The notes: generated by a model not told the origin, from the sequence alone. A stretch of 23,631 nt of DNA from Candidatus Latescibacterota bacterium (GCA_963662665.2 CAXXJS010000003.1:1-23631); one strand, 5' to 3'; positions 6,981 through 23,631 are shown, counted from the first letter of the stretch. Numbers and translations: made by a program.

Positions 6981-8276
6981 TCAAACCCGTGTCTTGAGCC
7001 GGGCAAAATGGATGGTGTCGTCCAGTACAATGAGACCGAGATAGGTTGTGACATCTGTGCGGGATGGATCCAGACTCGAGATAACTCCCCGGAACCAGGC
7101 GCGCCGTTTCTCGTTCCAGGGCTCGATCGTACCGATATCGCGGTTGAAATCGCTGATCTCGGAACTGGATTTGCCGTGGTTCTTTTCGAGCCACGCGAGT
7201 ATCTCTTCATCGGTACGGCCCGCCTTGATGAGACCGGTAAGGTCGCCGATGGAAAACCCGAAAAACTCCGCGATCTTCTTGTCCAGTCCGGAATTCTCCG
7301 CGTACTTATATTGGCCCAGCAAATCGTGGATCGCCGCCCTGCCCTTGTCGATCATCCGAGCCAGGCCGAAGAGACCGCCCGCGGACGCGTCGTAAGGGCT
7401 TCTCGGCGGGTGGCGAGTCAGGTCCACAACGCCGAACGATTTCTCGTCATCCACGTCGAGCAGGTCGAACCACGTGGTGATGTCGGTGCGGTTTGGCGCG
7501 GCGTTCGCGAGCGCAGCCTTGAAGATCGCGCACTCCTTGATGTCCTCCGGACCCTTATTGGAGATTCGATGGTTGAATTCGGAAACTTCACCGGAATGTA
7601 CGCTGGTGTGATCCCGAACCCAGTCGCCGAGTTCCAGGTCGTTCGGATTCATGTACGCGGCTTCCTTGAAGTCCTCAGCCGAAAAACCGAGAAAGTCGGT
7701 GATCGCCTGGTCGATCGGGCAATTGTAGACATACTCGCCCAGCAGGCCTGCCTTATCTGCGCGGGCCTTGTCCGCCATGCGGGCGAGTCCGAAGGTCCCC
7801 GCGACGTCTCTGCGGTAGGGTGACCGGGGAGCTCTTTGCGAGAGGTCCACGTCTCTGAAGCCGGCCCAGTCGTCCAGTTCGATAGATTGGAATACCGTGA
7901 CGATGTCGGTTCGACCGGGCGCGTATTTCTCGATGCGGTCCTTAAGACGCTGTTTACCGGCTTCATCGTCCGGCTCGCGCTGGAGATGATGCCGATTGAA
8001 GGTGTCGATCTCAGCGTCCGTCCGGTCGGAAACCTCCCGTATCCAGCGCCCCAGGTCCTCGTCACCGTAGCGTCCGGCGGCGTCGGCAAAACCGTCGTGT
8101 GAAACGCCCAGGAATTCCAGCAGAATCTTGTCCAGACCCGAGTCGTCGCCGTACAGAAATTCACCGAGCGTCCGCAGGTTGTAGGCGCGGGCCTTGTCCG
8201 TCATACGGGCGAGGTTGACGATTCCGGCAATTGAGACGTTTGACGGGCGGCGTGGAGGCTGGCGTCTCAGATCCAC
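6981..8276 (-). CDS. Protein of three tandem DUF5069-like domains
   Basis: Three ~142-aa repeats with DL...PR.P...G...LARM.DK.RA....LG(E/Q)(F/Y).Y and a C-terminal RTD(I/V).T......DD. GTG start after an AAAGGA RBS. Confidence 0.8.
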   Translation of the reverse strand: MDLRRQPPRRPSNVSIAGIVNLARMTDKARAYNLRTLGEFLYGDDSGLDKILLEFLGVSHDGFADAAGRYGDEDLGRWIREVSDRTDAEIDTFNRHHLQREPDDEAGKQRLKDRIEKYAPGRTDIVTVFQSIELDDWAGFRDVDLSQRAPRSPYRRDVAGTFGLARMADKARADKAGLLGEYVYNCPIDQAITDFLGFSAEDFKEAAYMNPNDLELGDWVRDHTSVHSGEVSEFNHRISNKGPEDIKECAIFKAALANAAPNRTDITTWFDLLDVDDEKSFGVVDLTRHPPRSPYDASAGGLFGLARMIDKGRAAIHDLLGQYKYAENSGLDKKIAEFFGFSIGDLTGLIKAGRTDEEILAWLEKNHGKSSSEISDFNRDIGTIEPWNEKRRAWFRGVISSLDPSRTDVTTYLGLIVLDDTIHFARLKTRV

Positions 8277-8679: not shown

Positions 8680-9042
8680 TTACCTGGTGCGAATCCGTAC
8701 TCGCCCTGACTCTACAATCGCTAACTTCCCACGAAGTAAAGGAAAGTTCTGCAATTGTACAAGGAACGAAGATAAAAGGCGCTCGATGAATGACGACGTC
8801 GCGTGCCGAGGCAAACGCATGATGACGATGCCATGATACTTCGACGGTAGATAGCGGCGAACGTCGGCAAACCCAAGGTCGCCACTCAACAAGCAGAGTC
8901 TCTCATCGCGTGCGTATTGGACGATCTCCTCATCGCTCGCGCTCATCATGCCAATATCACGCACATCCACGGCTTCGTGGCCGTACTGGGCAATCACTTG
9001 AGAAACAGATCGCGGAAGATCCGCATCAACAATAAATCGCAC
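8680..9042 (-). CDS. DUF5615 PIN-like toxin (VapC45-like)
   Basis: MRFIVDADLP...GHEAVDVRD...SDEEI...ARDERLCLLSGDLGF...HGIVIMR. Starts 5 bp after the DUF433 gene. Confidence 0.82.
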   Translation of the reverse strand: MRFIVDADLPRSVSQVIAQYGHEAVDVRDIGMMSASDEEIVQYARDERLCLLSGDLGFADVRRYLPSKYHGIVIMRLPRHATSSFIERLLSSFLVQLQNFPLLRGKLAIVESGRVRIRTR

Positions 9043-9047
9043 GTCGA

Positions 9048-9272
9048 TCAGGACCGTGGTAGAGAATGTGTCTCTTCGTGCTCGATCAACTCCTCGGCAT
9101 ATGCAAGCGCCGCTCTCAGGTCTTCGTCTGTGATAGCATATTCCTCACAGACCTCGTCCGGATCAGACCCGCCCGCGAGACTCCCGATTATCCTATGCAC
9201 AGGTACTCTCGTTCCCCTGATCACCGGTTTTCCATGACGAATTGACGGATCAATAACAATGCGATCGTTCAT
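9048..9272 (-). CDS. DUF433 antitoxin (VapB45-like)
   Basis: RIVIDPSIRHGKPVIRGTRVPV...EEYAITDEDLRAALAYA is a typical DUF433 sequence. ATG 9272 follows GGAGGAGG. Confidence 0.9.
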   Translation of the reverse strand: MNDRIVIDPSIRHGKPVIRGTRVPVHRIIGSLAGGSDPDEVCEEYAITDEDLRAALAYAEELIEHEETHSLPRS

Positions 9273-9465
9273 TTTACGGCCTCCTCCAACTCCCGGATAC
9301 ATCCGACAATCGCGCCGGCACCCGTAATTATCGTCGATTGGTATCGCTGCCCGTGAGGAACGACCAAACGGAACGGATGGGCTCACAGGCTTAGTATCCC
9401 GGCTCGGTTCTCATTTCCTTAGGTTAAACTTCAGCCGACTGCGGGGCCGGACCACGCACGGGTCA

Positions 9466-10322: not shown

Positions 10323-10414
10323 CAAGACTGTAGACGCAAGACGTCAGAGAACCCGATCCGACCCCAATAGTCTTTCGCGTTTTTCCTCTTCTAACGTCTC
10401 ACTTCTCCCGTCTT
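10323..10414. repeat. Imperfect palindromic element with 7-bp-periodic arms
   Basis: AGA at 10325/10332/10339/10346 and TCT at 10390/10397/10404/10411. Related to the element at 19111-19230. Confidence 0.55.
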
Positions 10415-11182
10415 CCCACGGTTGGGCTGGATGGGCGTGGTGACGGCTTGAATGAATGCTTTGACGCGGTTGACATCGGTAACGTCGTGTGAGAATTCAG
10501 GCGGGCGTAACTCGCCGCCCATAAAGGCGTTCGGGTTGCGGTACGTCATCCGGCCGGGAACGCTGCTCGCGGCGGCAACGTGGATTTCGCGGGCGCCTGT
10601 GCCGGCGACGACCTTCGCGACGTTGCGTTCGGTAATTCCGCCGCCGGGCATGACCACGATCCGACCGGCGGCCTTCTCGATCAACCCGGCGATAAGATCG
10701 ATCCCTTCCAGCGCAGATACTTCCCGGCCCGAAGTGAGTACCCTGTCCACGCCCAGTGAAATCAGGTCTTCCAGCGCGCGGTGTGGATCGGCGGTCATGT
10801 CGAACGCGCGGTGGAACGTTACCGGAAGCGGGCGGATTCGTTCGATGAGGGCGCCCGTACGCTCCACGTCGATCGATCCGTTCGGATTCAGGATGCCGAT
10901 CACTATCCCGTCAACGCCCGATTCGGCGGCAATTTCAACGTCCCTCAACATCGTTTCGAACTCCACGTTGGAATAACAGAAGTCTCCTCCTCGCGGCCGG
11001 ACGATGACGTTGAGACCGATGTCAATATGCTGGCGGGCAACCTGAACGGCCCCCGCGCTGGGGGTTGTGCCGCCTTCTATCAGGTTGTCGCACAACTCTA
11101 CGCGATTTGCGCCGGCCTCCTGCGCGGAGATGGCGCCCTGTGCGGATCCCACGCAGATTTCAAACAACAATGGCGTATTCAA
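10391..11182 (-). CDS. cutC: CutC family TIM-barrel protein
   Basis: FEICV, GANRVELC, GGTTPS, RPRGGDF, TFHRAFD, VLTSG and MPGGGI. TTG start at 11182 follows GGAGG. Confidence 0.92.
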   Translation of the reverse strand: MNTPLLFEICVGSAQGAISAQEAGANRVELCDNLIEGGTTPSAGAVQVARQHIDIGLNVIVRPRGGDFCYSNVEFETMLRDVEIAAESGVDGIVIGILNPNGSIDVERTGALIERIRPLPVTFHRAFDMTADPHRALEDLISLGVDRVLTSGREVSALEGIDLIAGLIEKAAGRIVVMPGGGITERNVAKVVAGTGAREIHVAAASSVPGRMTYRNPNAFMGGELRPPEFSHDVTDVNRVKAFIQAVTTPIQPNRGKTGEVRR

Positions 11183-11258
11183 TTTGCACCTCCGTCCGTG
11201 ACGTGGTCGATCCGCCGCAGTCCGGGCCGAGACCTGTTGGTTGGGACGGGACAAGGCC

Positions 11259-14200
11259 CTACCCGATATATCCGAACTCCATATCGTCCACCCACAGGAC
11301 CTGGTCGGGTTCTCCCCCACCATTGAACGCGATGGACACGGTTGTGTAGCCCGGTTGGACGTCCAGTTCCGCCCGGTATTCCGTCCATGCCTCGCCGGAT
11401 TGGATGGGGACGACGAGGTGGGTGTCCTGCTGGCCGGACACGCAAACCCGGGCATGGGTGGCGGAACCCCTGGCTTTGAACCGAAGGTGGTAGCGTCCGG
11501 CGGTGCGAAGACGCATCGGGCGGCTCTTCAGCGACATGGGGTCCCCGGGCCTCGTAAACTTGAGACACGCGCCGCCTTCATCGGCATCCTCCGTACTCCA
11601 CGCCGGCCAGCCAAGATCATGGGTACGGGGGTGTTGGACGTTCCAGTGACGGGGCGGGTAATCCACAATACCGGCTTCAAAACCGCCGTTGCAAAGCAGG
11701 TTGACAAGCCGGCCCTCGTGGCTCTCTACAAGGGTTGCACTCAGACGCGGTCGAGCCGCCCGCGGATAGCGAACGAAGATTTCCGTGCCTTCTCTCAGGC
11801 AGCCGGTGGCGCGCCCTTTCCCGCGTACGCTCACGTCCGGGTCCCACCGGTCCTGAACGAGCAATTCCGCGCCTTCCGCGACGACTTTATAGACGCCGGG
11901 CTCGCGCGGCGAAAATTCGGCAAAGGCGATGATGTCCCCATTATCCGCGACGGCAGTCTGCAAATCCAACGTCTGCCGGCCATCACCGTCCACAAGCGTC
12001 AAATGAAGCGGTTCCGGGATTGTCGCAAAATCTGCGACAGGGTCAATCCAAAGGACGGCCTCGCCTGCGCCGCTCAACTCGATTCTTACTTTCCGTTCAC
12101 GCCACGTAAAATCGACCGGTTCCGCCTTGTCAGGACGGTCCGGCGGCGAAATAAACACGGATTTCGGTTCTTCGGGCAAGTGGATGGAGAGGCTCACTGG
12201 CGTCTGATGCCGGACGTGGATTTGCGCTGCAACGCTGCGCGAGTCGTAATTCGCCGCCGCGTCGCAATCCGCGTTTGCTGCCAGAAGAATCTCCCCATCC
12301 AGGCTTAGCCGGGAGCCCCCTTGCAGCAGCCAGCGTTGAAGTCCGTCTCCGCCGTGACTGACATTGACCACCCTGGCGTCCGACTGGATACCCGCGCCTT
12401 CGATCGCGCCGCCCCACCGGGTCCGGAACAGGACGCACTCGGATCCGTTTCCGGACTGAAAACAGACGCCTTCTGCGCCATCCGCCTCCACGCGGCGGAC
12501 ATGATCAACTCGCGGTCCGTCCGTATCCCTGTACGTATGCAACACCGCCATGAGTTGCGCACTGGCGCGCTGTTCAGTTGTAACCCGGATATGCCACTGC
12601 TGGGGGAAGGCTTCGGTAACGCGGCACCAGTCCCGCGTTTTCAGGGGAAAGGGCCGGTCGTTGTTCTGCGAGTACTTCAACTTACCGTTTGCCAGGTGGC
12701 GGACCAGAAGGCGCTGGTCCCGCTGCCGGACAGTCATGGATTGATTGCTTTCGTCAATATCCGCGCTTTCGAACGTGTTGAGCGTCCAGGTGTATTCCCG
12801 CGGTTCAGGCGCATCCAGGTCGTCACAGATGACGAAAACGTCCGGCCGGATGAAGAGGACGTGGCGGTGAAACCCTTCGAGCAGTTCCCCGTACGCGCCT
12901 GAAGCGTCTCCGGTGAAGAAACAGACGTCGGGCGTATTGAAAAAGGCCGTTATCTCTCCTTTGTGGGCGATCCCCCGGCGCTGGTTTTCGCCGTCCACGA
13001 GGATGGTATTGTGCGCCTGTGTGGTCCGGGTCCATTGGGCGTGGTACGTGTCTCCGTAATAGGTGTAATACCCCGCGTCGCAGCAGAGGATCTCACCTCC
13101 CGCGTGGATGACGAATCCGTTCTGGTCCTGGTGTGCGTGGCTGTGATCGCCCCAGGGGCTGCTGCGGAAGAAGATGCGGCTGCTTCCGTGATCGTAGAAC
13201 CGGTTGTAAGCTGCGAGTTGGCCGACGTCGGGAAACAGGCGGGCCTGCGCGATATCCACCGGCGGCCTGGGCTTTACGCCGCTGCCGGAGAGATACTGGA
13301 GCGGAAGGTGGACCGGGTTGCAGATCCGTGTATCGCTCCACCACTTGACGCAGGGGTTGTCCGTCATCGACGCAAGAAACGCAGAGACGTACGTATCGGC
13401 GTCGCTGCCGAAATTGGGGTCGAACAGGGAATAGCAGTCACCCCAGTGGTTCCACCAGTAATTGAGGGACATGCAGTAGAGCCAGAACGCGCCGGTATTC
13501 TGCCACCGGGGTTCCCTGAAGACGTCCAGACCCGTTGCGGTCTTGAGGGCAGCCAGGGCCTCCAGGATGAATTGCACTTTGTGCCCGTACTTCTGGCCTT
13601 CGGTGTACCCGCCATCGCTGCTTCCCCAGGCGACCCTGTTCACGTACTGGCGGATGAGGTAGTCGGCACATTCCCGGGTCCGGGCGGATTCGGTCGCGAT
13701 GGCCAGAACCGTGGGCAGAAGCGCGTGCATGCACTGTTGACCGTGGGAATTCTGATAATTCAGGTGGATCTGAAGTCCTTCGCGGATCCACTTGTAGGCC
13801 GCTTCGCAATGAAACTCGATGTGTTCCATTACTCTTGAACGTTCCCGGGGCGTAAGCAGACCGTAGAGTCGATCGTACGCGAGAGCCATGCCCTTCAGTC
13901 CGTATTCGTAGCAGTAGACGACGGTGTCGTGCTGCCCCCGGTCTTCCTGGTGGACGTCGACGCGGAAGTTCGAGATGAAGGTCATCCAACGCCGCGCGGC
14001 CTCGGCGTACTGTCTCTCGCCCGAAATCAGATAAGCAAACGAGAGCGCGTTGACGTTATCGGCGCATCGCTTGAGGTCGCCGATCCGGAAGTTTGCCGGG
14101 AACGTGATACGGCCGTCTTTCAGATGAAAGACCTGACCGCGCCGTTCCGACAGGTTCGCCGGCACGGATTGCAGGTTCAACTCGGGCAGTTTGCCATGAA

Positions 14201-14681
14201 CCGTGGCATCCGCCCGTTGTCTGAGGTGACGCCAGGCTTCACGGCCGGCGCCATGCCTGCGGGCGCGGAAGTCTTCAAGGGTGTCTGGTGTTACAAAGAT
14301 GCGGGGGTGGTCCGGCATTGTGTCGAGAATACGCTCCGTCGGGGGTACGGGAAGCGGGACCGATTCGGGCGTGATGCGAAAGCTGCGGACGGGTCCGGGT
14401 CGGGACTCCTCGCCTTCGGAGGTGACCGCGAAGTAACGCCAGTACCACGTTCCGTAGGCCAGTTCGATCGACGGATTGTAAAATGGCATGTCGATTCCCG
14501 TGCAGCGGATGACCTTCTTCCGGAATCGGGGATTCCTGCAGAACTCCGCGATGTACGTGGCGGCCCTGTCATCTGCGCGCCAGATCAGGGAAGGGGGATT
14601 CTGGACCACGACGGCGTCGTCGTCGGGTGTGATCGGCGGGTGGCGGTCCGGCGGGGGCGACGTATCGACGTTAAAAGCCAT
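11259..14681 (-). CDS. DUF4962 + heparinase II/III-like polysaccharide lyase with C-terminal CBM-like domain
   Basis: N-terminal QNPPSLIW...GTWYWRY, NSH and GGYTEGQKY, FPDVG, HAHQDQNGF, AHNTILVDG, and C-terminal NLLCNGGFE...LWVDDMEF. No signal peptide is visible. Confidence 0.8.
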   Translation of the reverse strand: MAFNVDTSPPPDRHPPITPDDDAVVVQNPPSLIWRADDRAATYIAEFCRNPRFRKKVIRCTGIDMPFYNPSIELAYGTWYWRYFAVTSEGEESRPGPVRSFRITPESVPLPVPPTERILDTMPDHPRIFVTPDTLEDFRARRHGAGREAWRHLRQRADATVHGKLPELNLQSVPANLSERRGQVFHLKDGRITFPANFRIGDLKRCADNVNALSFAYLISGERQYAEAARRWMTFISNFRVDVHQEDRGQHDTVVYCYEYGLKGMALAYDRLYGLLTPRERSRVMEHIEFHCEAAYKWIREGLQIHLNYQNSHGQQCMHALLPTVLAIATESARTRECADYLIRQYVNRVAWGSSDGGYTEGQKYGHKVQFILEALAALKTATGLDVFREPRWQNTGAFWLYCMSLNYWWNHWGDCYSLFDPNFGSDADTYVSAFLASMTDNPCVKWWSDTRICNPVHLPLQYLSGSGVKPRPPVDIAQARLFPDVGQLAAYNRFYDHGSSRIFFRSSPWGDHSHAHQDQNGFVIHAGGEILCCDAGYYTYYGDTYHAQWTRTTQAHNTILVDGENQRRGIAHKGEITAFFNTPDVCFFTGDASGAYGELLEGFHRHVLFIRPDVFVICDDLDAPEPREYTWTLNTFESADIDESNQSMTVRQRDQRLLVRHLANGKLKYSQNNDRPFPLKTRDWCRVTEAFPQQWHIRVTTEQRASAQLMAVLHTYRDTDGPRVDHVRRVEADGAEGVCFQSGNGSECVLFRTRWGGAIEGAGIQSDARVVNVSHGGDGLQRWLLQGGSRLSLDGEILLAANADCDAAANYDSRSVAAQIHVRHQTPVSLSIHLPEEPKSVFISPPDRPDKAEPVDFTWRERKVRIELSGAGEAVLWIDPVADFATIPEPLHLTLVDGDGRQTLDLQTAVADNGDIIAFAEFSPREPGVYKVVAEGAELLVQDRWDPDVSVRGKGRATGCLREGTEIFVRYPRAARPRLSATLVESHEGRLVNLLCNGGFEAGIVDYPPRHWNVQHPRTHDLGWPAWSTEDADEGGACLKFTRPGDPMSLKSRPMRLRTAGRYHLRFKARGSATHARVCVSGQQDTHLVVPIQSGEAWTEYRAELDVQPGYTTVSIAFNGGGEPDQVLWVDDMEFGYIG

Positions 14682-14771: not shown

Positions 14772-14800
14772 TTGACATGCCGATGGCGCAGGAGTATCTT
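14772..14800 (+). promoter_or_regulatory. Sigma70-type promoter for the lipoprotein-DUF350-SDR-aminopropyltransferase operon
   Basis: TTGACA (14772-14777), 17-bp spacer, TATCTT (14795-14800). Confidence 0.6.
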
Positions 14801-14937: not shown

Positions 14938-15618
14938 ATGCGACAGTTGCGATGGCCGGCAATTGCATTCGTCACACTCTGCGTTGCCGGGTGCGGCACA
15001 CGGGACCCCGTTCAGGAAATGCGGAAAAGCCTGGCAAACGCGCCCGAGTATATGATCATACTGGACGATATGAGAGAAACAGGCACGTTCTCCACGGACT
15101 ACTACCATAAGTATACGGTGGTACAGGGGGAGCGGCAGCGCACGACGGATTGGATCGAGGTGTCCTACGAGGTCTATCGGAAATACCAACCGTTTCTTGG
15201 CATGGCCATTGTGGCCAAGTCGGACAAAGGGGTGAACGATACGCCCCATCCGCCCGGATACCACTACGTCGGAAACTCGCATTACGGGCATTGGGGCGGC
15301 GGCGGAAGTTTCTGGGTGTTCTACGGTCAATACGCGATGATGCGGAGTTTAATGGGCGGGGGCTACGGGGGGCAGATCTACAGAAACGACTACAACGACT
15401 ATCGCAACAACCGGGACCGGCGGCGGCCGTACTATGGTCGCAACCGCGAGTACGGTACCGCGGGGTCGGTCACGAAAAGGCAAAGGCCGGGGTTTTACAA
15501 GCGCCGGCAACAGGCGATGGCAAACAGGCAGCGGTCCTTCTCCCAGAGGGTCAGGGACCGGTCCGGTCGCAGCAGGTCGGGCTTTGGCAGCCGCAGCAGA
15601 GGGAGGTTCGGAAAATGA
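14938..15618 (+). CDS. Lipoprotein with Arg/Gly/Ser/Tyr-rich low-complexity tail ending RGRFGK
   Basis: ATG 14938 lies 6 nt after TAAGGAG. Signal MRQLRWPAIAFVTLC followed by lipobox VAG|C. The tail SRSGFGSRSRGRFGK recalls the GFG tails of lipoproteins next to DUF350 genes. Confidence 0.8.
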   Translation: MRQLRWPAIAFVTLCVAGCGTRDPVQEMRKSLANAPEYMIILDDMRETGTFSTDYYHKYTVVQGERQRTTDWIEVSYEVYRKYQPFLGMAIVAKSDKGVNDTPHPPGYHYVGNSHYGHWGGGGSFWVFYGQYAMMRSLMGGGYGGQIYRNDYNDYRNNRDRRRPYYGRNREYGTAGSVTKRQRPGFYKRRQQAMANRQRSFSQRVRDRSGRSRSGFGSRSRGRFGK

Positions 15619-16460
15619 TGTGGGACAGTTTGCTGGAATCGGGGATTTACCTGGTCTGCGCGTACGTGTTGTTCTGGATTGGCAAGTTGGTTTACGACTG
15701 GACCACGCCGAGCTACCGCGTGAAGGAAGAGCTTGTGGAAAAGGACAACTCGGCATTGTCAGTGGCAATGGCCGGGTACTTCTTCGGACTGGTGATGGCC
15801 ATCGGAGGGGTGATTTCAGGCCCGTCGCATGGGCTGGAGCTCGACCTGATCGACGTACTCATTTACGGACCGCTGTCGATCGTGCTGATGAATCTGGCCC
15901 GGATTATCAACGACCGGTTGATCCTGCACCAGTTCTCGATTCGGGATGAAATCATCCGGGATCAGAACGCCGGCACGGGCGCCGTGGTATGCGCCTCATA
16001 CATCGCCACCGGTCTGGTAATTTTCGGCGCCGTGTCCGGCGAACTGGGCGGCTTGGGCATAACGGTCGCGTTCTGGGTGCTGGGGCAGGCGGCGCTGGTG
16101 CTGGCGGGCATCGTCTACAACTGGACGACGCCCTACGATCTGCATTCGGAAATCGAACGGGACAACGTGGCGGCGGGTGTGGCCTTTGCGGGCGCGCTGG
16201 TAGGTATCGGCATTGTGGTGCGGCACGCGGTCTCCGGAGACTTTATCTCCTGGACGGCGAGCCTGCAGGACTTCGCGCTTGAGGTGGTTCTGGGTCTGGT
16301 TCTGTTGCTCGTGGTTCGGGTTGCCACGGACAAGATCCTGCTGCCGGGCCTGAACCTGTCGGCGGAAATCTCGGATCCCGAGAACCCTCACCTGGGCGCA
16401 GGATTCATCGAAGCGTTTTCGTACGTGGGTGCGTCGCTGCTGATTGTGTGGGCCCTTTAG
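15615..16460 (+). CDS. DUF350 membrane protein (duplicated domain, YjfL-like)
   Basis: ATGA overlap with the upstream stop. Repeats TTPSYRVKEELVEKDNSAL, IRDEIIRDQNAG and TTPYDLHSEIERDNVAAG separate the hydrophobic helices. Confidence 0.88.
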   Translation: MMWDSLLESGIYLVCAYVLFWIGKLVYDWTTPSYRVKEELVEKDNSALSVAMAGYFFGLVMAIGGVISGPSHGLELDLIDVLIYGPLSIVLMNLARIINDRLILHQFSIRDEIIRDQNAGTGAVVCASYIATGLVIFGAVSGELGGLGITVAFWVLGQAALVLAGIVYNWTTPYDLHSEIERDNVAAGVAFAGALVGIGIVVRHAVSGDFISWTASLQDFALEVVLGLVLLLVVRVATDKILLPGLNLSAEISDPENPHLGAGFIEAFSYVGASLLIVWAL

Positions 16461-16472
16461 GAAGTCGCAATA

Positions 16473-17273
16473 ATGGGAAATCGCCTCAAAGATAAGATCG
16501 CGATCGTGACGGGAGCCGGTTCGGTCGGGCCCGGATGGGGTAACGGAAAGGCGGCGGCCGTTCTCTTTGCGCGAGAAGGCGCCCGTATATTCGCCGTGGA
16601 CCTCAATCCGGAGGCGGCGGACGAGACCCGTGAGATAATCATGCGCGAAGGCGGTGAATGTACGGCTCACACGGCGGATGTGTCCCGGTCCGAAGACGTG
16701 GCAGCCATGGTCGCGCGGTGCCTCCGTACGTACGACCGTATTGACATTCTGCACAATAATGTCGGCATTCTGCATGTCGGGGGATGCGTTGAACTGAGTG
16801 AGGAAACCTGGGACCGCGTGGTAGACGTGAACCTCAAGAGTATGTTCCTGACCTGCAAGCACGTGCTTCCCGGGATGGAACGCCAGGGCGGCGGGGCGAT
16901 TGTGAATATTTCTTCAATTACCTCGATCCGCTGGTTGGGCGTGCCCTATGTTTCCTATAGCGCAACCAAGGGCGGGGTGAATCAACTCACCCAGAGTATT
17001 GCCATGCAGTATGCAAAGAAGAACATCCGTGCCAACTCCATATTGCCCGGATTCATGAACACGCCCATGGTGGCTAAATCACTTGCCGAATTCTACGCGA
17101 AGGGCGACGTGGAGAAAATGATTGAAATCCGCGACAACCAGTGTCCCATGGGCCGGATGGGCGATGCCTGGGACGTGGCTTACGCTGCCCTGTATCTGGC
17201 TTCGGACGAAGCGAAATACGTCACCGGGGCCGAACTCGTCGTGGATGGCGGGTTGACGTGTAAGGTTGTATAG
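16473..17273 (+). CDS. Short-chain dehydrogenase/reductase (classical SDR)
   Basis: IVTGAGSVGPGWGNG, NNVG, IVNISS, YSATK (YxxxK), IRANSILPG and VTGAELVVDGG. Confidence 0.93.
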   Translation: MGNRLKDKIAIVTGAGSVGPGWGNGKAAAVLFAREGARIFAVDLNPEAADETREIIMREGGECTAHTADVSRSEDVAAMVARCLRTYDRIDILHNNVGILHVGGCVELSEETWDRVVDVNLKSMFLTCKHVLPGMERQGGGAIVNISSITSIRWLGVPYVSYSATKGGVNQLTQSIAMQYAKKNIRANSILPGFMNTPMVAKSLAEFYAKGDVEKMIEIRDNQCPMGRMGDAWDVAYAALYLASDEAKYVTGAELVVDGGLTCKVV

Positions 17274-17294
17274 CGGGGGATAGAAGAAGAGGGT

Positions 17295-18899
17295 ATGGCG
17301 CCAATAAACAGCGTCCCCGAGGACCGCGGAGCCAGTGAAGCAACCCACACGTTAACGCCGGGCGGTTCCGGAAGCGGCCGGCTGTTGAAGGTGTGTCTGT
17401 TCGCGACCGGCCTGGCGGGAATTGTCGCGGAATTCGTGCTGTCCACCCTGGCCAGCTATCTGCATGGAAACACGACGTTGCAGTGGACGCTGGTCATGTC
17501 GTTGATGTTCTTTACGATGGGGCTTGGAAGCCGGCTGAGCCGGTACCTGTCGGAGCGGTTGCTGGACCGGTTTATTGCAATTGAGTTCATCCTTTCGGCG
17601 CTGTGCGCAACATCAGCCGCAGCGGCCTATTGGGGTACGGCGTTCGTCGGAGAGGCGAGCGCCGTTATTTATGGTTACGCTGGAGCGATAGGATTTCTGA
17701 TCGGACTGGAGATTCCCCTTGTAACGCGCATGAACGACGCGTACGAGGTACTGCGAGTCAATATCGCGTCCGTCATGGAGAAAGATTATTACGGCGCACT
17801 GGTGGGTGGGTTGCTGTTCGCGTTTTTCTTGTTGCCGAAGCTGGGTTTAACGTATACGCCCATCGCGTTGGGAGCGGTGAATTTCGCGGTTGCGTCTGCG
17901 CTTCTGTGGCGATATCGAGGCCTGCTGGTACGGCGCGGCGCGTTGATTGCCGCGTTCTGGATTACCGCGGCGGGACTGGTCGCGCTGGGCGTTTATATGA
18001 AGCCCATCGTGCGGTTCGGCGAGCAGAGCCGGTATCGGGACCGGGTGATTTATGAGACGCAGACCCCCTACCAGCGGATTGTGATAACGGAGTGGAAAGG
18101 GTATCACTGGCTGTATCTTAACGGAGGAATGCAGTTCAGTACCTATGACGAGGAGCGGTACCACGAGCCGCTGGTGCATCCGGCTATGGGACTGGCGGCA
18201 TCCAGGGAACGGGTGCTGATTCTGGGTGGGGGCGATGGATTGGCGTTGCGGAACGTATTGAAATACCCGGACGTGAAACGGGTGACGCTGGTGGACCTGG
18301 ATCCGGAGATGGTCCGGCTGGCGCGAAACCATCCGGTGTTCGTGGAAGCGAACGAAGGGGCGCTGGACGATGAACGGGTGGACGTCGTGACCCGGGACGC
18401 GGGCCGGTTTCTGGCAGACGACGCCGGGATTTACGATGTAATCCTGGTAGATTTGCCGGACCCCAAGGGGCCGGACCTTGCGCGGTTGTATTCAGTGGAA
18501 TTCTATTCCGCATGCAAACAGCATCTCTCACAGTATGGAATTCTCGTGACGCAGAGTTCAAGTCCTCTCCACGCCAGAAAGGCGTTTTTATGCGTGTTGC
18601 GGACGCTGAAAGCTGCGGGGTTCCATGTTATACCATATCACAATGCGATTCCAACCATGGGTGATTGGGGGTGGCACCTGGGCATGAAGGCTGAGGTGAT
18701 TTCCGAACCGGATCTGAAACAGAGAGCGTTGGCGATGCGCTTTTCGGACGTCGAAACGGTATTCCTTAACCGCGAGGCGATGGCGGGTATGCTGCATTTC
18801 TGGAAGGGGATGTTCAACGGTGTCGAAGACGTGGAAGTGAATACGGAACTGGCGCCGGTGGTGGACAGTTATTACCGGGAAGGAGAGTGGGGATGGTGA
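17295..18899 (+). CDS. speE: Polyamine aminopropyltransferase (spermidine-synthase family) with N-terminal multi-TM domain
   Basis: About 7 hydrophobic helices, then TPYQRI, QFSTYDEERYHE, LILGGGDG, VDLD, DA and DLPDP. Confidence 0.88.
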   Translation: MAPINSVPEDRGASEATHTLTPGGSGSGRLLKVCLFATGLAGIVAEFVLSTLASYLHGNTTLQWTLVMSLMFFTMGLGSRLSRYLSERLLDRFIAIEFILSALCATSAAAAYWGTAFVGEASAVIYGYAGAIGFLIGLEIPLVTRMNDAYEVLRVNIASVMEKDYYGALVGGLLFAFFLLPKLGLTYTPIALGAVNFAVASALLWRYRGLLVRRGALIAAFWITAAGLVALGVYMKPIVRFGEQSRYRDRVIYETQTPYQRIVITEWKGYHWLYLNGGMQFSTYDEERYHEPLVHPAMGLAASRERVLILGGGDGLALRNVLKYPDVKRVTLVDLDPEMVRLARNHPVFVEANEGALDDERVDVVTRDAGRFLADDAGIYDVILVDLPDPKGPDLARLYSVEFYSACKQHLSQYGILVTQSSSPLHARKAFLCVLRTLKAAGFHVIPYHNAIPTMGDWGWHLGMKAEVISEPDLKQRALAMRFSDVETVFLNREAMAGMLHFWKGMFNGVEDVEVNTELAPVVDSYYREGEWGW

Positions 18900-18999
18900 A
18901 TCTAACCTTGATTCGCAATTCTTCGGGGAAGTAAAACCGAATATATGCAAGTAGATAAAGGCGATTTAACTTCTGATTACCAGGATACACCAGGTCACT

Positions 19000-19027
19000 G
19001 GACGTGGACTGAAAGAACGTCCTTTTT
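19000..19027 (+). terminator. Possible weak intrinsic terminator after the aminopropyltransferase
   Basis: GGACGT-N11-ACGTCC followed by TTTTT. Confidence 0.35.
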
Positions 19028-19110
19028 AACGACCGTTATTGCCCGTTTCAGGGGTTTTCGTCGCGTTGCCGAGTTGCTGTTTTTTTCACATTGAATCTAA
19101 GAGCGGGCGG

Positions 19111-19230
19111 TAAGACGTGAGACGGGAGAAGACGTACTTGCCCAATTGGTTCTTCCTTTTATACCGCCAGCAAGAAATGAAACCGTAGTGGGCAGGCAAT
19201 CTCTCACGTGTTCCGTCTACCCTCTCACCG
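19111..19230. repeat. Imperfect palindromic element with 7-bp-periodic arms
   Basis: AGA at 19113/19120/19127 and TCT (once TGT) at 19202/19209/19216/19223. Shares AGACGGGAGAAG with the reverse complement of 10402-10413. Confidence 0.5.
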
Positions 19231-19248
19231 TTTTTAAGGGTTCATACA

Positions 19249-19920
19249 ATGGAATTCGACGAAATCAGACGCCGGCTTTCACGATTGGATACGGCGTGTG
19301 TCTGCGATGGGTATAAGGCGCTTGAAAGACCCGTCAGGGCCGTTGACCCGGCCATCCGTCCCGTCACACCCGGCCTCAGGCTCATCGGACGCGCGCACAC
19401 GCTGACCTGCCACGAGGACTTCCTGACCGTGATCGTCGCCCTTCGCGATGCCTTGCCCGGGGAAGTCCTGGTGATAGACTCTCAGGGAAGCCGGAAGGCG
19501 CTCACCGGGGAACTGTTTCCAACTGAGGCGAGACGAAAGGGGCTGGCGGGCATCGTGAACGACGGGCCCTGCAGGGATACGGCCGCGATCCGCCAACAAC
19601 AGCTGCCCTATTACGCCCGGTCCGTCAACCCCGTTGCGGGCGCGACGGACAGGATCTTCGAGACGCAGGTCCCCGTTTCCTGCGGCGGCGTTACGGTGCA
19701 CCCGGGCGAGATCGTCTTCGGAGACGACGACGGGTTGATCGTAGCTGCCGAGGATGAGATTGCGGAGGTGATTCCCGTCGCGGAAGAGGTACAGAGGAAA
19801 GAGGCGCGCCTGCTTGCGGAGATGGATAAAGGCGTGAGCCTTGTCGAGATGCTGAATCTCGACGAACACTGCGGAAAGATACGCGCCGGCCAGGAGAGCA
19901 AATTGAAGTTTCTGGTATGA
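19249..19920 (+). CDS. RraA / HMG-CHA aldolase family protein
   Basis: DTACVCD, GRAHT, PGEVLVID, TGEL, GIVNDGPCRD and GGVTVHPGEIVFGDDDG. Confidence 0.9.
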   Translation: MEFDEIRRRLSRLDTACVCDGYKALERPVRAVDPAIRPVTPGLRLIGRAHTLTCHEDFLTVIVALRDALPGEVLVIDSQGSRKALTGELFPTEARRKGLAGIVNDGPCRDTAAIRQQQLPYYARSVNPVAGATDRIFETQVPVSCGGVTVHPGEIVFGDDDGLIVAAEDEIAEVIPVAEEVQRKEARLLAEMDKGVSLVEMLNLDEHCGKIRAGQESKLKFLV

Positions 19921-19939
19921 CGAGAGTGTATGACACCAA

Positions 19940-19983
19940 AACAGGGCGGCCGACATTTCGTCGGCCGCCCTGTTGTTTCCTTT
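19940..19983. terminator. Bidirectional intrinsic terminator between convergent genes
   Basis: Perfect 15-bp stem AACAGGGCGGCCGAC / GTCGGCCGCCCTGTT with a 5-nt loop and T-rich runs on both strands. Confidence 0.88.
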
Positions 19984-19994
19984 AAAAAAAACGT

Positions 19995-20528
19995 CTATCC
20001 CGTGGGCAGGATGTCGCTGAACTGGTATTCTTCGACAATTTCTCCGAGCGAGGCTTCGAAGTCGTCCTCGCCCCACTGTTCAATTGAAAGGGTTTTTCGT
20101 TCGGTATCGTCGAGGTACTCCCACGTGATCAATTCCCGCGGGGGTTCCTCGCCGTTCTTGTAGAATTCACCCGCATCGGAAGATTCCGCGTAATAGGTCA
20201 CGCCGTTGCAGGTTACCTCTTCGGGAGGGTCTTCGTGTTCAACGACGTGGGACGTTGGATCGCCGTCGATCTGAGAGACGCGGACCTTGCGTGAAACGGT
20301 CCAGCAAATGGCGTCGTCCTCCTCACGTTCCAGGTACAAGACGTCATCGGCGCAGGTCAATTCCCATTCGTCCACGCGTTCTCCATCGAAATCGTAGTGG
20401 TTCTGTGCCGTGACCTTCCAGGTTTTGAGGTCATAGTCGACCACGTAACCGGGCTTGAGATCAGACAGTGAGAAGTCGACCACGGGGTCGACTTCATCGG
20501 TCTTTTTCTTGAAGGGATTCCAGTTCAC
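19995..20528 (-). CDS. DUF4178 domain protein
   Basis: LKPGYVVDYDLKTWKV...EWEL...YLEREED, PPEEVTCNGVTY, WEY...LSIEQWGEDDFEASLG. Directly downstream of pspA. Confidence 0.8.
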   Translation of the reverse strand: MNWNPFKKKTDEVDPVVDFSLSDLKPGYVVDYDLKTWKVTAQNHYDFDGERVDEWELTCADDVLYLEREEDDAICWTVSRKVRVSQIDGDPTSHVVEHEDPPEEVTCNGVTYYAESSDAGEFYKNGEEPPRELITWEYLDDTERKTLSIEQWGEDDFEASLGEIVEEYQFSDILPTG

Positions 20529-20582
20529 AGGATCGCCCCTACCGCGCCAGGAACCTGAATTCCCGGCGGCGAAGTGCCGGAT

Positions 20583-21284
20583 TTACGCCTGAATTCCCAT
20601 TTTGCTCTTGAGTTCGGCCAGTTTGTCCGCGCCAGGGTTCTTTTCCTGGAGCGCGGCGTCGATCTCTTCGTCCACGCTCTTGGACGCGTCGGCCACCTCG
20701 CCGTAGGCCTGCGACAGGGACTCGTCTTCTTCCACCCGCTCCTTCATACGTTCGAGCATGGCAAGCGTGCCGTTAGAGTCCACTTTCGCGAGTTGTTTGT
20801 TGATCTTCTTCGTTGCCGCGGCCGTTCGCGCCCGGGCGCGCAGCGTTACCAGGTCGTTTTCGTAACCGGCAATGGAAGACTTGAGCTTGTCCACCTGGGT
20901 CTGCAGCTGAGCGGCCATTTCCTCCTGCTGTTTCGCGTTCTGGCTCAGCGTGGCCGCCCGGTCCACGTTCTCCTCCTTGCGCGCCAGCGCTTCGCCGGCG
21001 AGTCGGTCGGCTTCGGCGGGGTCGATGTTGTTCTTCTGGGCCCTCTGAAGCAGCGCCATGGCTTTCCGTTCGTAGTCCTCCGCCGCCTTCTTGCTGTCGG
21101 ATGCCTGTTTGCGCAGCCGGATGCCCTGCCCCTTGACCTCGGCGAGGCTGGTCATGGCGTTGCTCAGATCTTTCTTGAGATCCCGTATACCCTGTTCCGT
21201 CAGGCGGATCGGATCTTCGAGTTTGTCGATGGCAGAGTGAACTTCGGCCTGGCCCACGCGAAAGATGCGTTGAAAGACGCCCAT
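20583..21284 (-). CDS. pspA: PspA/IM30 (Vipp1, bacterial ESCRT-III) family protein
   Basis: MGVFQRIFR amphipathic N-terminus, AIDKLEDP, long coiled coil, LRARARTA, LERMKERV and C-terminal LAELKSKMG. Confidence 0.93.
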   Translation of the reverse strand: MGVFQRIFRVGQAEVHSAIDKLEDPIRLTEQGIRDLKKDLSNAMTSLAEVKGQGIRLRKQASDSKKAAEDYERKAMALLQRAQKNNIDPAEADRLAGEALARKEENVDRAATLSQNAKQQEEMAAQLQTQVDKLKSSIAGYENDLVTLRARARTAAATKKINKQLAKVDSNGTLAMLERMKERVEEDESLSQAYGEVADASKSVDEEIDAALQEKNPGADKLAELKSKMGIQA

Positions 21285-21371
21285 GGCATACTCCTATTTG
21301 AGTCGGGATTCGATGTCTGGAGATCGGGACACGCAACGGCCTGATTTTCGGGGTTCCGACCCCTGCTCTGA

Positions 21372-21767
21372 CTATTGTCTGCTGTAACTTAACAGTTCTT
21401 CGGCGTTTTCGCCCAGTGCAAAGCCCAGGGCGTTGACAGTGCCTTCGATTTCCGCCCTGTCCAGCGTATCCAGGCGAAGGGTATCGCGGAAAAGAATGGT
21501 TCCGGTCTCTTCGTCGAGCGCAAAAGCGCCATGGATCAGCGTCCGGTTTATCTCCAGCAGGCGCTTGTAGAGATCGCCCGGATTTTTCGGGACGGGCATG
21601 ATGGCCTGTTCCAGGATGAGGATGGGATCTTCACAGTCGACAATAAGCCTGTGGATCCCCCGGTCTTCGTCGGTGACGACCGCCAGTTCCTCGCCGGAAT
21701 CCTCTTCTTCAATGACCAGTTCGAGGTCCTGAAGATAAGCTTTGACGGTTTCAAAGTGCCGCGACAT
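21372..21767 (-). CDS. YbjN / CesT-Tir chaperone-fold protein
   Basis: Small and acidic, with LIVDCEDPILILEQ, LYKRLLEINRTLIHGAFALDE and FRDTL. AAAGGAG RBS, immediately upstream of pspA. Confidence 0.78.
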   Translation of the reverse strand: MSRHFETVKAYLQDLELVIEEEDSGEELAVVTDEDRGIHRLIVDCEDPILILEQAIMPVPKNPGDLYKRLLEINRTLIHGAFALDEETGTILFRDTLRLDTLDRAEIEGTVNALGFALGENAEELLSYSRQ

Positions 21768-21858
21768 GAAAACTCCTTTGAAATTGCGCTGACAGGAACT
21801 GCCTGCGTGTTCGTGAATATATGATTCTCAAGGGTGTATTTTGTTTCAAAAAAGCTTC

Positions 21859-22230
21859 TCAGATATTCAGCATCTTCCCTACACGGGCAGCGAGGGATTC
21901 CGGCGGCGCCGGTTTTTCCAGGATATTTTCCTGGCGGATACCCAGACCGGCAAGTTCCTCCAGGCGTTCCGGACCCGGGCTTTGGACGAGAACCAGCAGT
22001 GGAAGACGGGAGAGCATTTTCCGGATGAAACGAATGCAATCGGGCCCGCTGATTTCCGGTAGATCGTATGCGAGAATGACGAGGGCGTAGCCCCTGGGAT
22101 TTTCAGCGAGGGTTTCCAGGGCGCTGCGGCCGTCGGTGACCACGTCCAGTTCGACGTTCCGATGATCGAACAAACCGCCGGCGAGGGCCATGGCTGTCGG
22201 ACCGTCTTCCGCAAGCAGAATTCTTGGCAA
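21859..22230 (-). CDS. Stand-alone atypical (pseudo) receiver domain
   Basis: RILLAED, DGRSALE, LVILAYDLPEISG and LEKP follow the CheY pattern, but Ala replaces the phospho-Asp. TTG start. Confidence 0.75.
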   Translation of the reverse strand: MPRILLAEDGPTAMALAGGLFDHRNVELDVVTDGRSALETLAENPRGYALVILAYDLPEISGPDCIRFIRKMLSRLPLLVLVQSPGPERLEELAGLGIRQENILEKPAPPESLAARVGKMLNI

Positions 22231-22622: not shown

Positions 22623-23631
22623 ATGCAGAAATACCCGATCTGGACGATCAGGAATACGAGGGGTACCGACTCCGGTGCGGACGGTCCGGTCGCGCCGCTG
22701 GTGGACGTGGTGCTGGCAAACCGCGGTCTGACGGCCGGCGATATCGCGGATTCTCCCGGGATACTTCAGGACCCTTTCTCCATGAAGGACATGGACCGCC
22801 TCGCTGAGCGGATTGTAGAGGCTGTTCGTTCCGGCGAGCGCATCGTTGTATTCGGCGACTACGACGTGGACGGGGTGACGAGTACGGCCGTCCTGATGGA
22901 TTTTCTGGACAGAGTCGGCGCCGACGTCGTTTCCATCCTGCCGGACCGCTACCGGGACGGCTACGGGATGAAACCGCCCGGTGTCCGGCGAGCGATCGAA
23001 GCGGGCGCTCAATTGATCGTAACGGCGGACAACGGCATCTCCTCGTTCGAAGCGGTTGACGCGGCGAACGCGGCCGGCATCGACGTTCTGGTGACCGATC
23101 ATCATCAGCCTCAAGGCCGGCTGCCGGACGCGCTGGCCGTCGTCAATCCCAACCGTCCGGACTGTAACTACGTTTTCAAGGGGCTCGCGGCGGTGGGTGT
23201 GGCATTCAAAGCGGTGCAGGCGCTTTCAGACTCGCTCATCGAAGCATCTGAACGCCGGGCTTATCTGAATTCGCTTCTGGATCTGGTTGCTCTGGGCACT
23301 GTGGCGGATATCGCGCCCATGCTGGGTGAGAACCGGTTGCTGACCCGCAGGGGAATGCAGATCCTGGATCGGACGCAGCGTCCCGGGCTGCAGGCCTTGA
23401 AAGCCGTAGCCGGCGCCGACACCCGGCCCGTGGATACAACCGCGATCGGGTTCTTCCTGGGGCCGCGTATCAACAGCGCCGGGCGGCTGGCCTCCGCCGA
23501 CCTGGCGCTGGACCTGCTGCGTTCATCTGAAGCGGGCGACGCGGCCCGCCTCGCCGAGCGGTTGAACGCACTCAACCGGCAGCGGCGGGAACTCGAACTT
23601 GCGGGTGTGAAACAGGCCGGAGAACAGGTTG
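22623..23631 (+). CDS. recJ: Single-stranded-DNA-specific exonuclease RecJ, 3' end runs off the window
   Basis: Manually translated, not in the ORF track: DPFSMKDM, FGDYDVDGVTSTA, PDRYRDGYG, VTADNGI, VTDHH, VNPNR, LGTVADIAPMLGENR and GPRINSAGRL. Confidence 0.95.
   Translation, partial: MQKYPIWTIRNTRGTDSGADGPVAPLVDVVLANRGLTAGDIADSPGILQDPFSMKDMDRLAERIVEAVRSGERIVVFGDYDVDGVTSTAVLMDFLDRVGADVVSILPDRYRDGYGMKPPGVRRAIEAGAQLIVTADNGISSFEAVDAANAAGIDVLVTDHHQPQGRLPDALAVVNPNRPDCNYVFKGLAAVGVAFKAVQALSDSLIEASERRAYLNSLLDLVALGTVADIAPMLGENRLLTRRGMQILDRTQRPGLQALKAVAGADTRPVDTTAIGFFLGPRINSAGRLASADLALDLLRSSEAGDAARLAERLNALNRQRRELELAGVKQAGEQV

Follow-up and report, generated by a model that had tools for sequence, protein, structure and literature searches.

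Gene Content and Layout of the Locus

The DNA analyzed here, referred to as the window, is a stretch of 23,631 nucleotides from a Candidatus Latescibacterota bacterium (GCA_963662665.2 CAXXJS010000003.1:1-23631), and our subject is a gene cluster at positions 14,938 to 22,230 that brings together a PspA/IM30 protein, a lipoprotein and a membrane aminopropyltransferase. An earlier note on this DNA, the original prediction, had placed six gene families here as one module of about 7 kb. Profile scans with Pfam and NCBIfam over the 22 proteins of the window confirmed all six expected genes, the lipoprotein having no Pfam family (Table 1). However, the six genes form two convergent three-gene units rather than one operon, genes for a short-chain dehydrogenase (SDR) and an RraA-like protein are inserted among them, and the last 370 bases of the span belong to a receiver-domain gene outside the conserved set. 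The plus-strand unit encodes, in order, the lipoprotein, a tandem DUF350 protein, the SDR and the 534-residue PRK03612 aminopropyltransferase, the start of the DUF350 gene overlapping the stop of the lipoprotein gene (ATGA). Facing it on the minus strand are the genes for a CesT_Tir_1/YbjN protein, the sole match to PF22550 (CesT_Tir_1) in the genome, PspA and DUF4178, and the RraA-like gene and a 15-pair hairpin lie between the converging units. Upstream of the lipoprotein unit in several relatives we noted, by eye, a spacing like that of the sigma70-type candidate. The most informative feature of the locus is one that the original prediction missed, the terminal lysine of the lipoprotein.

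TABLE 1. Features of the locus; positions are counted from the first letter of the window.
Feature	Position	Strand	Basis or remark
Sigma70-like promoter candidate TTGACA-17-TATCTT, lipoprotein unit	14772..14800	+	consensus scan 10/12
Lipoprotein, 226 aa, putative acceptor	14938..15618	+	no Pfam match; lipobox Cys19, folded body, Arg/Ser/Gly-rich tail, terminal Gly-Lys
Codons of C-terminal Gly-Lys in lipoprotein	15610..15615	+	sequence
Tandem DUF350 membrane protein (YjfL-type, eight transmembrane helices)	15615..16460	+	PF03994 twice, E 2e-61
SDR, lineage-specific insertion	16473..17273	+	profile scans; inside plus-strand unit
Polyamine aminopropyltransferase PRK03612, seven transmembrane helices	17295..18899	+	573.5 bits vs cut-off 472
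RraA-like gene, genus-specific insertion between halves	19249..19920	+	PF03737
15-pair hairpin, likely terminator (predicted)	19940..19974		between converging units
DUF4178 protein, 177 aa, without signal peptide	19995..20528	-	PF13785, E 4e-22
PspA/IM30 (ESCRT-III superfamily), 233 aa	20583..21284	-	PspA_IM30 PF04012, E 9e-45
CesT/Tir-like (YbjN-like) protein, 131 aa	21372..21767	-	CesT_Tir_1 PF22550, E 6e-46
TGAAAC-N15-G(A/T)ATC element, candidate promoter of extracytoplasmic function (ECF) sigma type	21823..21848	-	upstream of cesT-pspA-DUF4178 unit

The Lipoprotein Ends in a Conserved Gly-Lys

The signal peptide of the lipoprotein ends in LCVAGC, and Cys19, G225 and K226 were invariant in all 55 aligned homologues. 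Of 108 homologues, with identities as low as 33%, 105 had a Gly-Lys C-terminus, as did 38/38 relatives; of the three homologues lacking it, one is a record labelled partial and the others appear to be frameshifted. The structural model (mean predicted local distance difference test score, pLDDT, 82) has its last 17 residues disordered. A fold search with this model gave no match at Z >= 5, and an Atlas search gave unnamed clusters only, plus a lead to UPF0323 at 0.85. We also considered and rejected homology with DUF1190, for which there was a weak Pfam match in 2/55 members and a similar segment of 22 residues; profile comparison gave probabilities of 1.6% and 0.5%.

A Half-MFS Fold Joined to a SpeE Fold

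The aminopropyltransferase consists of one half of a major facilitator superfamily (MFS) transporter, made up of transmembrane helices (TM) 1-6, followed by TM7 and a SpeE-fold domain. Its model (pLDDT 85) matched the SpeE of T. thermophilus best (Z 35.7, root-mean-square deviation 2.8, 282 residues aligned), and residues about 20-213, covering TM1-6, matched one half of the MFS transporter OxlT (Z 18.4, root-mean-square deviation 3.0, 184 aligned). The distribution of Lys and Arg in the loops placed the N-terminus and loops 2, 4, and 6 inside in 97/97 and 100/100 sequences of two sets, with a mean excess inside of 10.1 and 8.7, respectively; the inside segments were also longer (62 vs 40 columns). 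The orientation of MFS proteins agrees with this topology. Since the N-terminus is inside and there are seven helices, the catalytic domain should lie outside, on the side of the lipoprotein, and we therefore predict that the SpeE domain faces the periplasm.

The residues expected of an active enzyme, namely G311-G315 with D314, Y289-H290-E291, D386, and D389, are all conserved here, and the GGG(D/E)G motif for decarboxylated S-adenosylmethionine (dcSAM), YHE, D386 and D389 were kept in 100/100 diverse homologues. Users of dcSAM are described as recognizable by the acidic residue within GxG(D/E)G (PMC10349129), and the human counterparts of D386 and D389, matched by motif, are D173 and D176, Asp176 being described as binding the distal amine of putrescine (PMC13619349). 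The enzyme scored 149 bits against a cut-off of 250 for TIGR00417, the cytoplasmic spermidine synthase. HMMER matches to soluble SpeE began only after the first two strands (human residue 40), where the model has a helix, so that the lid of the diamine pocket (Trp28 in the human enzyme) is without a counterpart.

The tetramerization domain PF17284, found N-terminally in such synthases, was not matched in the enzyme at E 0.01 and was matched in a SpeD-SpeE fusion encoded elsewhere in the genome. This fusion (L001 1486-2802, G000:C14), on another contig, contains the sole S-adenosylmethionine (AdoMet) decarboxylase found in the genome joined to a soluble SpeE. In its SpeE part the DxxDP of typical enzymes is replaced by DVANP, and for this reason its product may not be spermidine. 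The possibility raised in the original prediction that the membrane enzyme makes only bulk spermidine was not borne out: given the separate SpeD-SpeE fusion and a catalytic domain predicted to lie outside, bulk synthesis is an unlikely role for it. Complex prediction with enzyme residues 26-534, S-adenosylhomocysteine and the last 32 residues of the lipoprotein was uninformative (score 0.12, mark 0.32), and we draw nothing from it.

The Last Residue of the Partner Differs with the Type of Enzyme

We examined 106 enzyme loci, of which 41 with <3 kb of upstream DNA were dropped. At 44 of the remaining 65 a same-strand open reading frame (ORF) ended in GK; the opposite strand had such an ORF at eight, and random windows gave 31 of 300. 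Several other loci had small single-TM genes ending in HK, VK, or TK. To 51 loci (the set dereplicated at 70%) we then applied a filter that ignores the last residue and selects for a hydrophobic stretch and a polar Gly/Ser/Arg tail. A partner ending in K was found at 42/51, with 0/51 on the opposite strand and 1/400 in random windows of the own genome, and 42 of the 49 anchored, polar-tailed neighbors ended in K; by comparison, 95 of 2874 long ORFs of the own genome do so. With the filter frozen, a K-ended partner was found at 18 of 22 held-out PRK03612 loci, which are all over-cut-off matches of a 251-genome phylum sample minus one already used. None was found at 20 soluble SpeE loci or at 16 loci of long TM-fused SpeE-like proteins, both control sets being hand-picked from the same table.

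By BLAST, 22 of the K-ended partners formed one family and 5 a second, and the other 15, mostly proteins of 50–120 residues, were unlinked, which indicates that the terminal lysine follows the enzyme and not one protein family; many are single-TM inner-membrane microproteins. We could rule out that the lysine is an artefact of translational overlap, as 33/42 had no start overlap and both AAA and AAG were used. Kin are not independent and so these counts do not amount to a statistical test; the partners nevertheless span unrelated families.

A different ending was found beside ATP-grasp ligases. At 18 such loci (two from E. coli, four viral and 12 from plasmids, the last chosen out of 40 rows listed; L235 was dropped for lack of upstream DNA), the partner ended in GG at 12, in GS at three and in SS at two near-identical loci, and none was found at one; two of the 12 GG-ended partners are the annotated upstream gene and did not pass the filter. 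Hence the last residue of the partner differs with enzyme type, being Lys beside the aminopropyltransferase and Gly or Ser beside the ATP-grasp ligase.

Several individual loci are of note. An Ensifer plasmid (L115 5759-9536) carries speD, an 8TM DUF350 gene, a gene for a membrane protein, a gene for a 78-residue single-TM protein ending in GK and the gene for the 7TM enzyme, without PspA. On large viral contigs (L238, L239, L236, L237) a YgiC-like ligase is near an anchored protein ending in GG or SS; DUF350 is described beside PspA in 10 huge phages in a 2026 preprint. At PspA-less enzyme loci (L137-L140, L151, L153, L202) an amine-oxidase-like gene is directly downstream and, speculatively, cross-linking would become possible if an aminopropyl arm, once added, were oxidized to an aldehyde.

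Conservation and Rearrangement of the Two Halves

Among 40 relatives surveyed, DUF350 was detected in 38 and DUF4178 in 39, and 38 regions were fetched for comparison of the locus. The original prediction had staked its reading on the two halves co-occurring in other genomes, and they do. They were adjacent and convergent in 33 of the 38 regions. In three complete chromosomes they were apart (by about 33 kb, 205 kb, and 2.7 Mb), and two contigs ended before the second half was reached. All six genes lie in one operon in Ignavibacteria/Bacteroidetes loci (L109-L111), with a speD-like gene divergent upstream, and the module genes are co-directional in L108-L111. Four distant genomes that lack the enzyme at their DUF4178 locus encode it elsewhere and thus hold both halves. 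As 33/38 relatives keep the halves adjacent and L109-L111 have a single operon, the clustering of the six genes is not due to chance. The convergence kept across relatives, together with that operon, leads us to infer that a single operon was rearranged long ago to give the split, and that the insertions came later.

The SDR gene was present in 19/20 loci of the same family and 0/18 of the sister family, and RraA was present in 13/38, all of the same genus. In seven sister-family loci only 18 bases, and no further gene, separate the end of the enzyme match from that of DUF4178. After this comparison we rejected the SDR, RraA and receiver genes as core parts; the SDR is probably unrelated to the module. 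Other genera of the family (L044-L049) have, with the SDR, extra thiolase-like and acyl-CoA-ligase-like genes (by eye) between DUF350 and the enzyme, and the inserts in sister-family loci are varied. Because inserts differ among genera and in the sister family, the DUF350-enzyme junction is an insertion hot spot.

Beyond the cluster, window positions 10391-14681 (-) encode CutC and a 1140-residue DUF4962/heparinase II/III-like protein, both oriented away from the lipoprotein gene and kept in only part of the family, and a DHH-family (RecJ-like) gene at 22644-23631 (+), cut by the window end, adjoins the cesT side across the order. Farther away are a 431-residue protein with three DUF5069 repeats (6981-8276, -) and a DUF433 and DUF5615 (PIN-like) pair that is a probable toxin-antitoxin module (8680-9386, -).

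The PspA Unit and Its Regulation

Near the enzyme at the 51 loci (counted with our own profiles and uneven flanks) we found DUF350 at 45, SpeD at 28, DUF4178 at 22, and PspA at 14; PspA was near eight of the 22 held-out loci. The original prediction had coupled polyamine chemistry to the activity of a PspA polymer. Any such coupling would be optional, as DUF350 and the Lys-ended partner are near-constant and PspA is not. We consider the PspA link to be ancient in this sub-type and not needed by the enzyme family.

The genome has three PspA-family genes including the window copy, which scored 53 against a cut-off of 243 for TIGR02977, the pspA equivalog. As the original prediction noted, there is no pspF, pspB or pspC among the 22 window proteins. 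In the genome, which is 92% complete, there was also no match to PspC and no sigma54 activator that reached the cut-off for PspF; for PspB no genome-wide search was made. The upstream regions of the module had no sigma54-like pattern, and those of the two halves had no motif in common beyond sigma70-like and ribosome-binding-site words.

The element TGAAAC-N15-G(A/T)ATC was found before cesT in 24/32 relatives, 0/21 distant loci and 0/38 lipoprotein upstream regions, and presumably resembles sigmaW-type promoters. The pattern has 12 sites in the genome; none of those listed precedes either of the remaining pspA genes, and for that reason we claim no regulon. Downstream of the second pspA (G000:C10 292698-298000) we noted, by eye, a probable ECF sigma factor gene and YuaF-like and flotillin-like ORFs, an arrangement that resembles the band-7 group described by Ravi et al.; about 8 kb from it is a match to a sigma54 activator.

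A Proposed Role in Protein Modification

Aminopropyltransferases require a primary amine, while ATP-grasp ligases require a carboxylate. Since the last residue of the partner supplies the need of each enzyme, the tail would appear in both systems to be a substrate that is capped with a polyamine-like arm. Our leading explanation for the present locus, to which we give about even odds, is an extracytoplasmic protein-modification system in which the enzyme aminopropylates the terminal lysine of the lipoprotein, a putative reaction for which the catalytic residues, the predicted topology and the conservation of the lysine form the basis. In such a system a cytoplasmic AdoMet decarboxylase, whose gene is elsewhere in this genome and adjacent at 28/51 related loci, would make dcSAM and supply it to the enzyme. 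The half-MFS domain (a fold assigned from the model), completed by dimerization or by DUF350, would pass dcSAM over the inner membrane, and the periplasmic SpeE domain would move the aminopropyl group onto the epsilon-amine of the C-terminal Lys in the flexible tail of the lipoprotein. More speculatively, the amine-capped, strongly basic tail could bind or cross-link anionic envelope components, and the separately promoted CesT-PspA-DUF4178 unit could act on the inner membrane face under stress, PspA being an exchangeable partner. The yjf/ygi version of E. coli would reach a similar product by other chemistry, its ATP-grasp ligase attaching spermidine through the C-terminal carboxyl group of a tail that ends in Gly.

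The wider proposition, to which we give slightly less than even credence, is that these loci represent a widespread and unrecognized post-translational modification in which a polyamine caps the C-terminus of an exported, anchored protein. It would have been built twice, by a periplasm-facing aminopropyltransferase that receives dcSAM via its own half-MFS channel and acts on Lys, and by an ATP-grasp ligase that adds spermidine to Gly. The last residue would predict the enzyme, and the capped tail would be an envelope-stabilizing or cross-linking handle working with PspA or band-7 scaffolds. This bears on the acceptor used by the membrane aminopropyltransferases, of which 7247 relatives are listed when other SpeE types are counted in, and on what E. 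coli YgiC/YjfC modify in nature, as the swap of Lys for Gly points in each system to one particular residue and one mass shift. If true, there is protein aminopropylation outside the cytoplasm, export of dcSAM is implied, and many "spermidine synthase" annotations would be corrected.

Several observations weigh against aminopropylation of the terminal lysine. The invariant D389, equivalent to human Asp176, suits a free diamine better than a Lys with a terminal carboxylate, and the internal Lys94 of the lipoprotein is also invariant. A C-terminal Lys has a use in wall cross-links of the Lpp type, and the genome holds one YkuD-family gene. The only AdoMet decarboxylase found is, as noted, a SpeE fusion on a different contig, and PspA is near only the minority of enzyme loci counted above. 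As to the census, the thresholds of the filter were chosen after seeing examples, and the held-out set came from one phylum sample. The filter gave no K-ended partner at 9/51 and 4/22 loci, some with the enzyme alone, and for yjfC of E. coli it passed one K-ended 61-residue ORF, which lies within aidB and is probably spurious.

The strongest alternative, which we nevertheless rate as considerably less probable, is that the terminal lysine is an Lpp-like anchor cross-linked to peptidoglycan by an L,D-transpeptidase, or a docking signal, while the enzyme aminopropylates a lipid head group, lipopolysaccharide or a wall amine. In its favor are the invariant C-terminal Lys of the lipoprotein, as in Braun's lipoprotein, the YkuD gene and the predicted external position of the catalytic domain. 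However, it leaves unexplained why a Gly or Ser end occurs beside the ATP-grasp ligase (17/18) and Lys beside the aminopropyltransferase, and the many K-ended partners that are single-TM inner-membrane microproteins do not suit it. Anchoring and aminopropylation could also be compatible, with the added amine serving as the cross-linking handle.

A shade less probable again is synthesis by the enzyme of a free polyamine (spermidine, aminopropylcadaverine or a longer one) on the external face of its membrane, where the product would shield the envelope, the Lys-tailed protein being a substrate mimic that regulates or positions the enzyme and DUF350 moving the diamine. All acids of the diamine site are kept, D389 included, the closest structures are ordinary SpeE proteins, and surface spermidine has been described as protecting the Pseudomonas outer membrane. 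On the other hand, the diamine-pocket lid is without a counterpart in the enzyme and soluble SpeE proteins have no K-tailed neighbor (0/20). Fusions of MFS and spermidine synthase (MFS-SpdSyn) do not make spermidine, as Li et al. reportedly saw in 2019; the same study is cited by Ravi et al. for aminopropylation of other substrates (PMC11237479).

That the locus is a sensing or signaling module, its SpeE domain binding the Lys tail or polyamines outside and signaling via DUF350 and DUF4178/CesT to control PspA assembly, seems to us quite improbable. It is close to the proposals of Ravi et al. (PMC11237479) and of the original prediction, and would account for the six genes being together in 33/38 relatives and several phyla; the analogous ygiB is described as Cpx-induced in Citrobacter, which becomes sensitive to peroxide upon its loss (bioRxiv 2021.12.13.472529). 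Yet the fully conserved catalytic residues and the linkage of SpeD at 28/51 loci suggest turnover, most enzyme loci lack PspA, and the halves have different upstream elements here and are far apart in three complete chromosomes. Least probable is an ordinary membrane-tethered spermidine synthase serving the cytoplasmic pool with its neighbors there by chance, which has the NCBIfam name (polyamine aminopropyltransferase) in its favor and against it the predicted periplasmic topology, the separate soluble SpeD-SpeE fusion and the constant linkage to DUF350, including one fusion of DUF350 to the enzyme (P0183).

Comparison with Known Systems

The original prediction judged this the best candidate for an uncharacterized system in the window. 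The function is indeed unsolved, but the gene set had been listed, as exactly this set is described by Ravi et al. (2024), who propose polyamine monitoring or aminopropylation of other substrates (PMC11237479). Their second group has CesT/Tir-PspA, a 7TM spermine/spermidine synthase, 8TM YjfL (DUF350), a Ctha_1186 lipoprotein and DUF4178, with the Shewanella oneidensis SO_3765 region as archetype (PMC11237479). We are nearly certain that our locus is a member of this CesT/Tir-PspA-DUF4178-lipoprotein-DUF350-7TM spermine-synthase class, which in this taxonomic order has been rearranged as two convergent units. The locus has each of the six components, in the same order within each triplet (lipoprotein-DUF350-enzyme and CesT-PspA-DUF4178), with an adjacent same-strand PF22550 and PF04012 dyad, a PRK03612 enzyme over its cut-off with an MFS-half match, two DUF350 stretches and PF13785; the Ctha_1186-type lipoprotein is likened to ours by lipobox, tail, position, and architecture only. 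The archetype differs in that its triplets are in tandem and co-directional, whereas ours converge, with SDR and RraA inserted, no ribbon-helix-helix (RHH) gene and a CesT gene of PF22550 rather than DUF2170. In the main text and one supplement of Ravi et al. that were searched, the tail is marked only as low-complexity and "lysine" occurs 0 times (PMC11237479). A literature search likewise found the operon described and no statement of a Lys/Gly rule, with most subscription papers and preprint supplements outside its reach.

The enterobacterial pspF-pspABC system shares the PspA/IM30 family with our locus, where no PspC, no PspF over the cut-off and no sigma54-like pattern were found. Clusters of an AdoMet decarboxylase (AdoMetDC), an MFS-SpdSyn fusion and DUF350 were reportedly described by Li et al. 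in 2019. The enzyme architecture and the DUF350 link are the same as here; our locus differs in having no AdoMetDC beside it and a PspA triplet attached. By analogy, a precedent for protein acceptors may be seen in the fungal NHMT, described as having 7TM and a SpdS-like domain and methylating the N-terminal histidine of secreted proteins (PMC10349129). It has the same domain order as our enzyme, the likeness of the TM parts being one of architecture only, and modifies a terminus of secreted proteins; it differs in being a methyltransferase and in having no acidic residue at the place in GxG(D/E)G where our enzyme has D314.

The view that the module is the aminopropyltransferase counterpart of E. 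coli yjfI-yjfJ-yjfK-yjfL-yjfM-yjfC was upheld by a parallel layout, with the PRK03612 enzyme in place of the ligase. In detail the parallel is looser. YjfK and DUF4178 are not detectably homologous, our attempt to equate them finding no match in profile comparison, and neither is there a significant profile match between DUF1190 and our lipoprotein. YjfC is annotated as a peptide-spermidine ligase and not, as had been supposed, a glutathionylspermidine synthase; YjfC and YgiC are both described as peptide-spermidine ligases whose natural substrate is stated to be unknown (PMC11762307; ligase role also PMC12568646). DUF1190 and DUF2491 had no match among the window proteins, nor did PF03738, the GSP_synth ATP-grasp ligase, in the 92% complete genome. 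The yjf/ygi systems likewise combine a CesT-like protein, PspA, DUF350, a lipoprotein with a Gly/Ser/Arg tail and a polyamine enzyme, but where E. coli has a soluble ATP-grasp ligase, a DUF1190 partner ending in GG and a 4TM DUF350 protein, our locus has a 7TM aminopropyltransferase, a partner ending in GK and an 8TM DUF350 protein.

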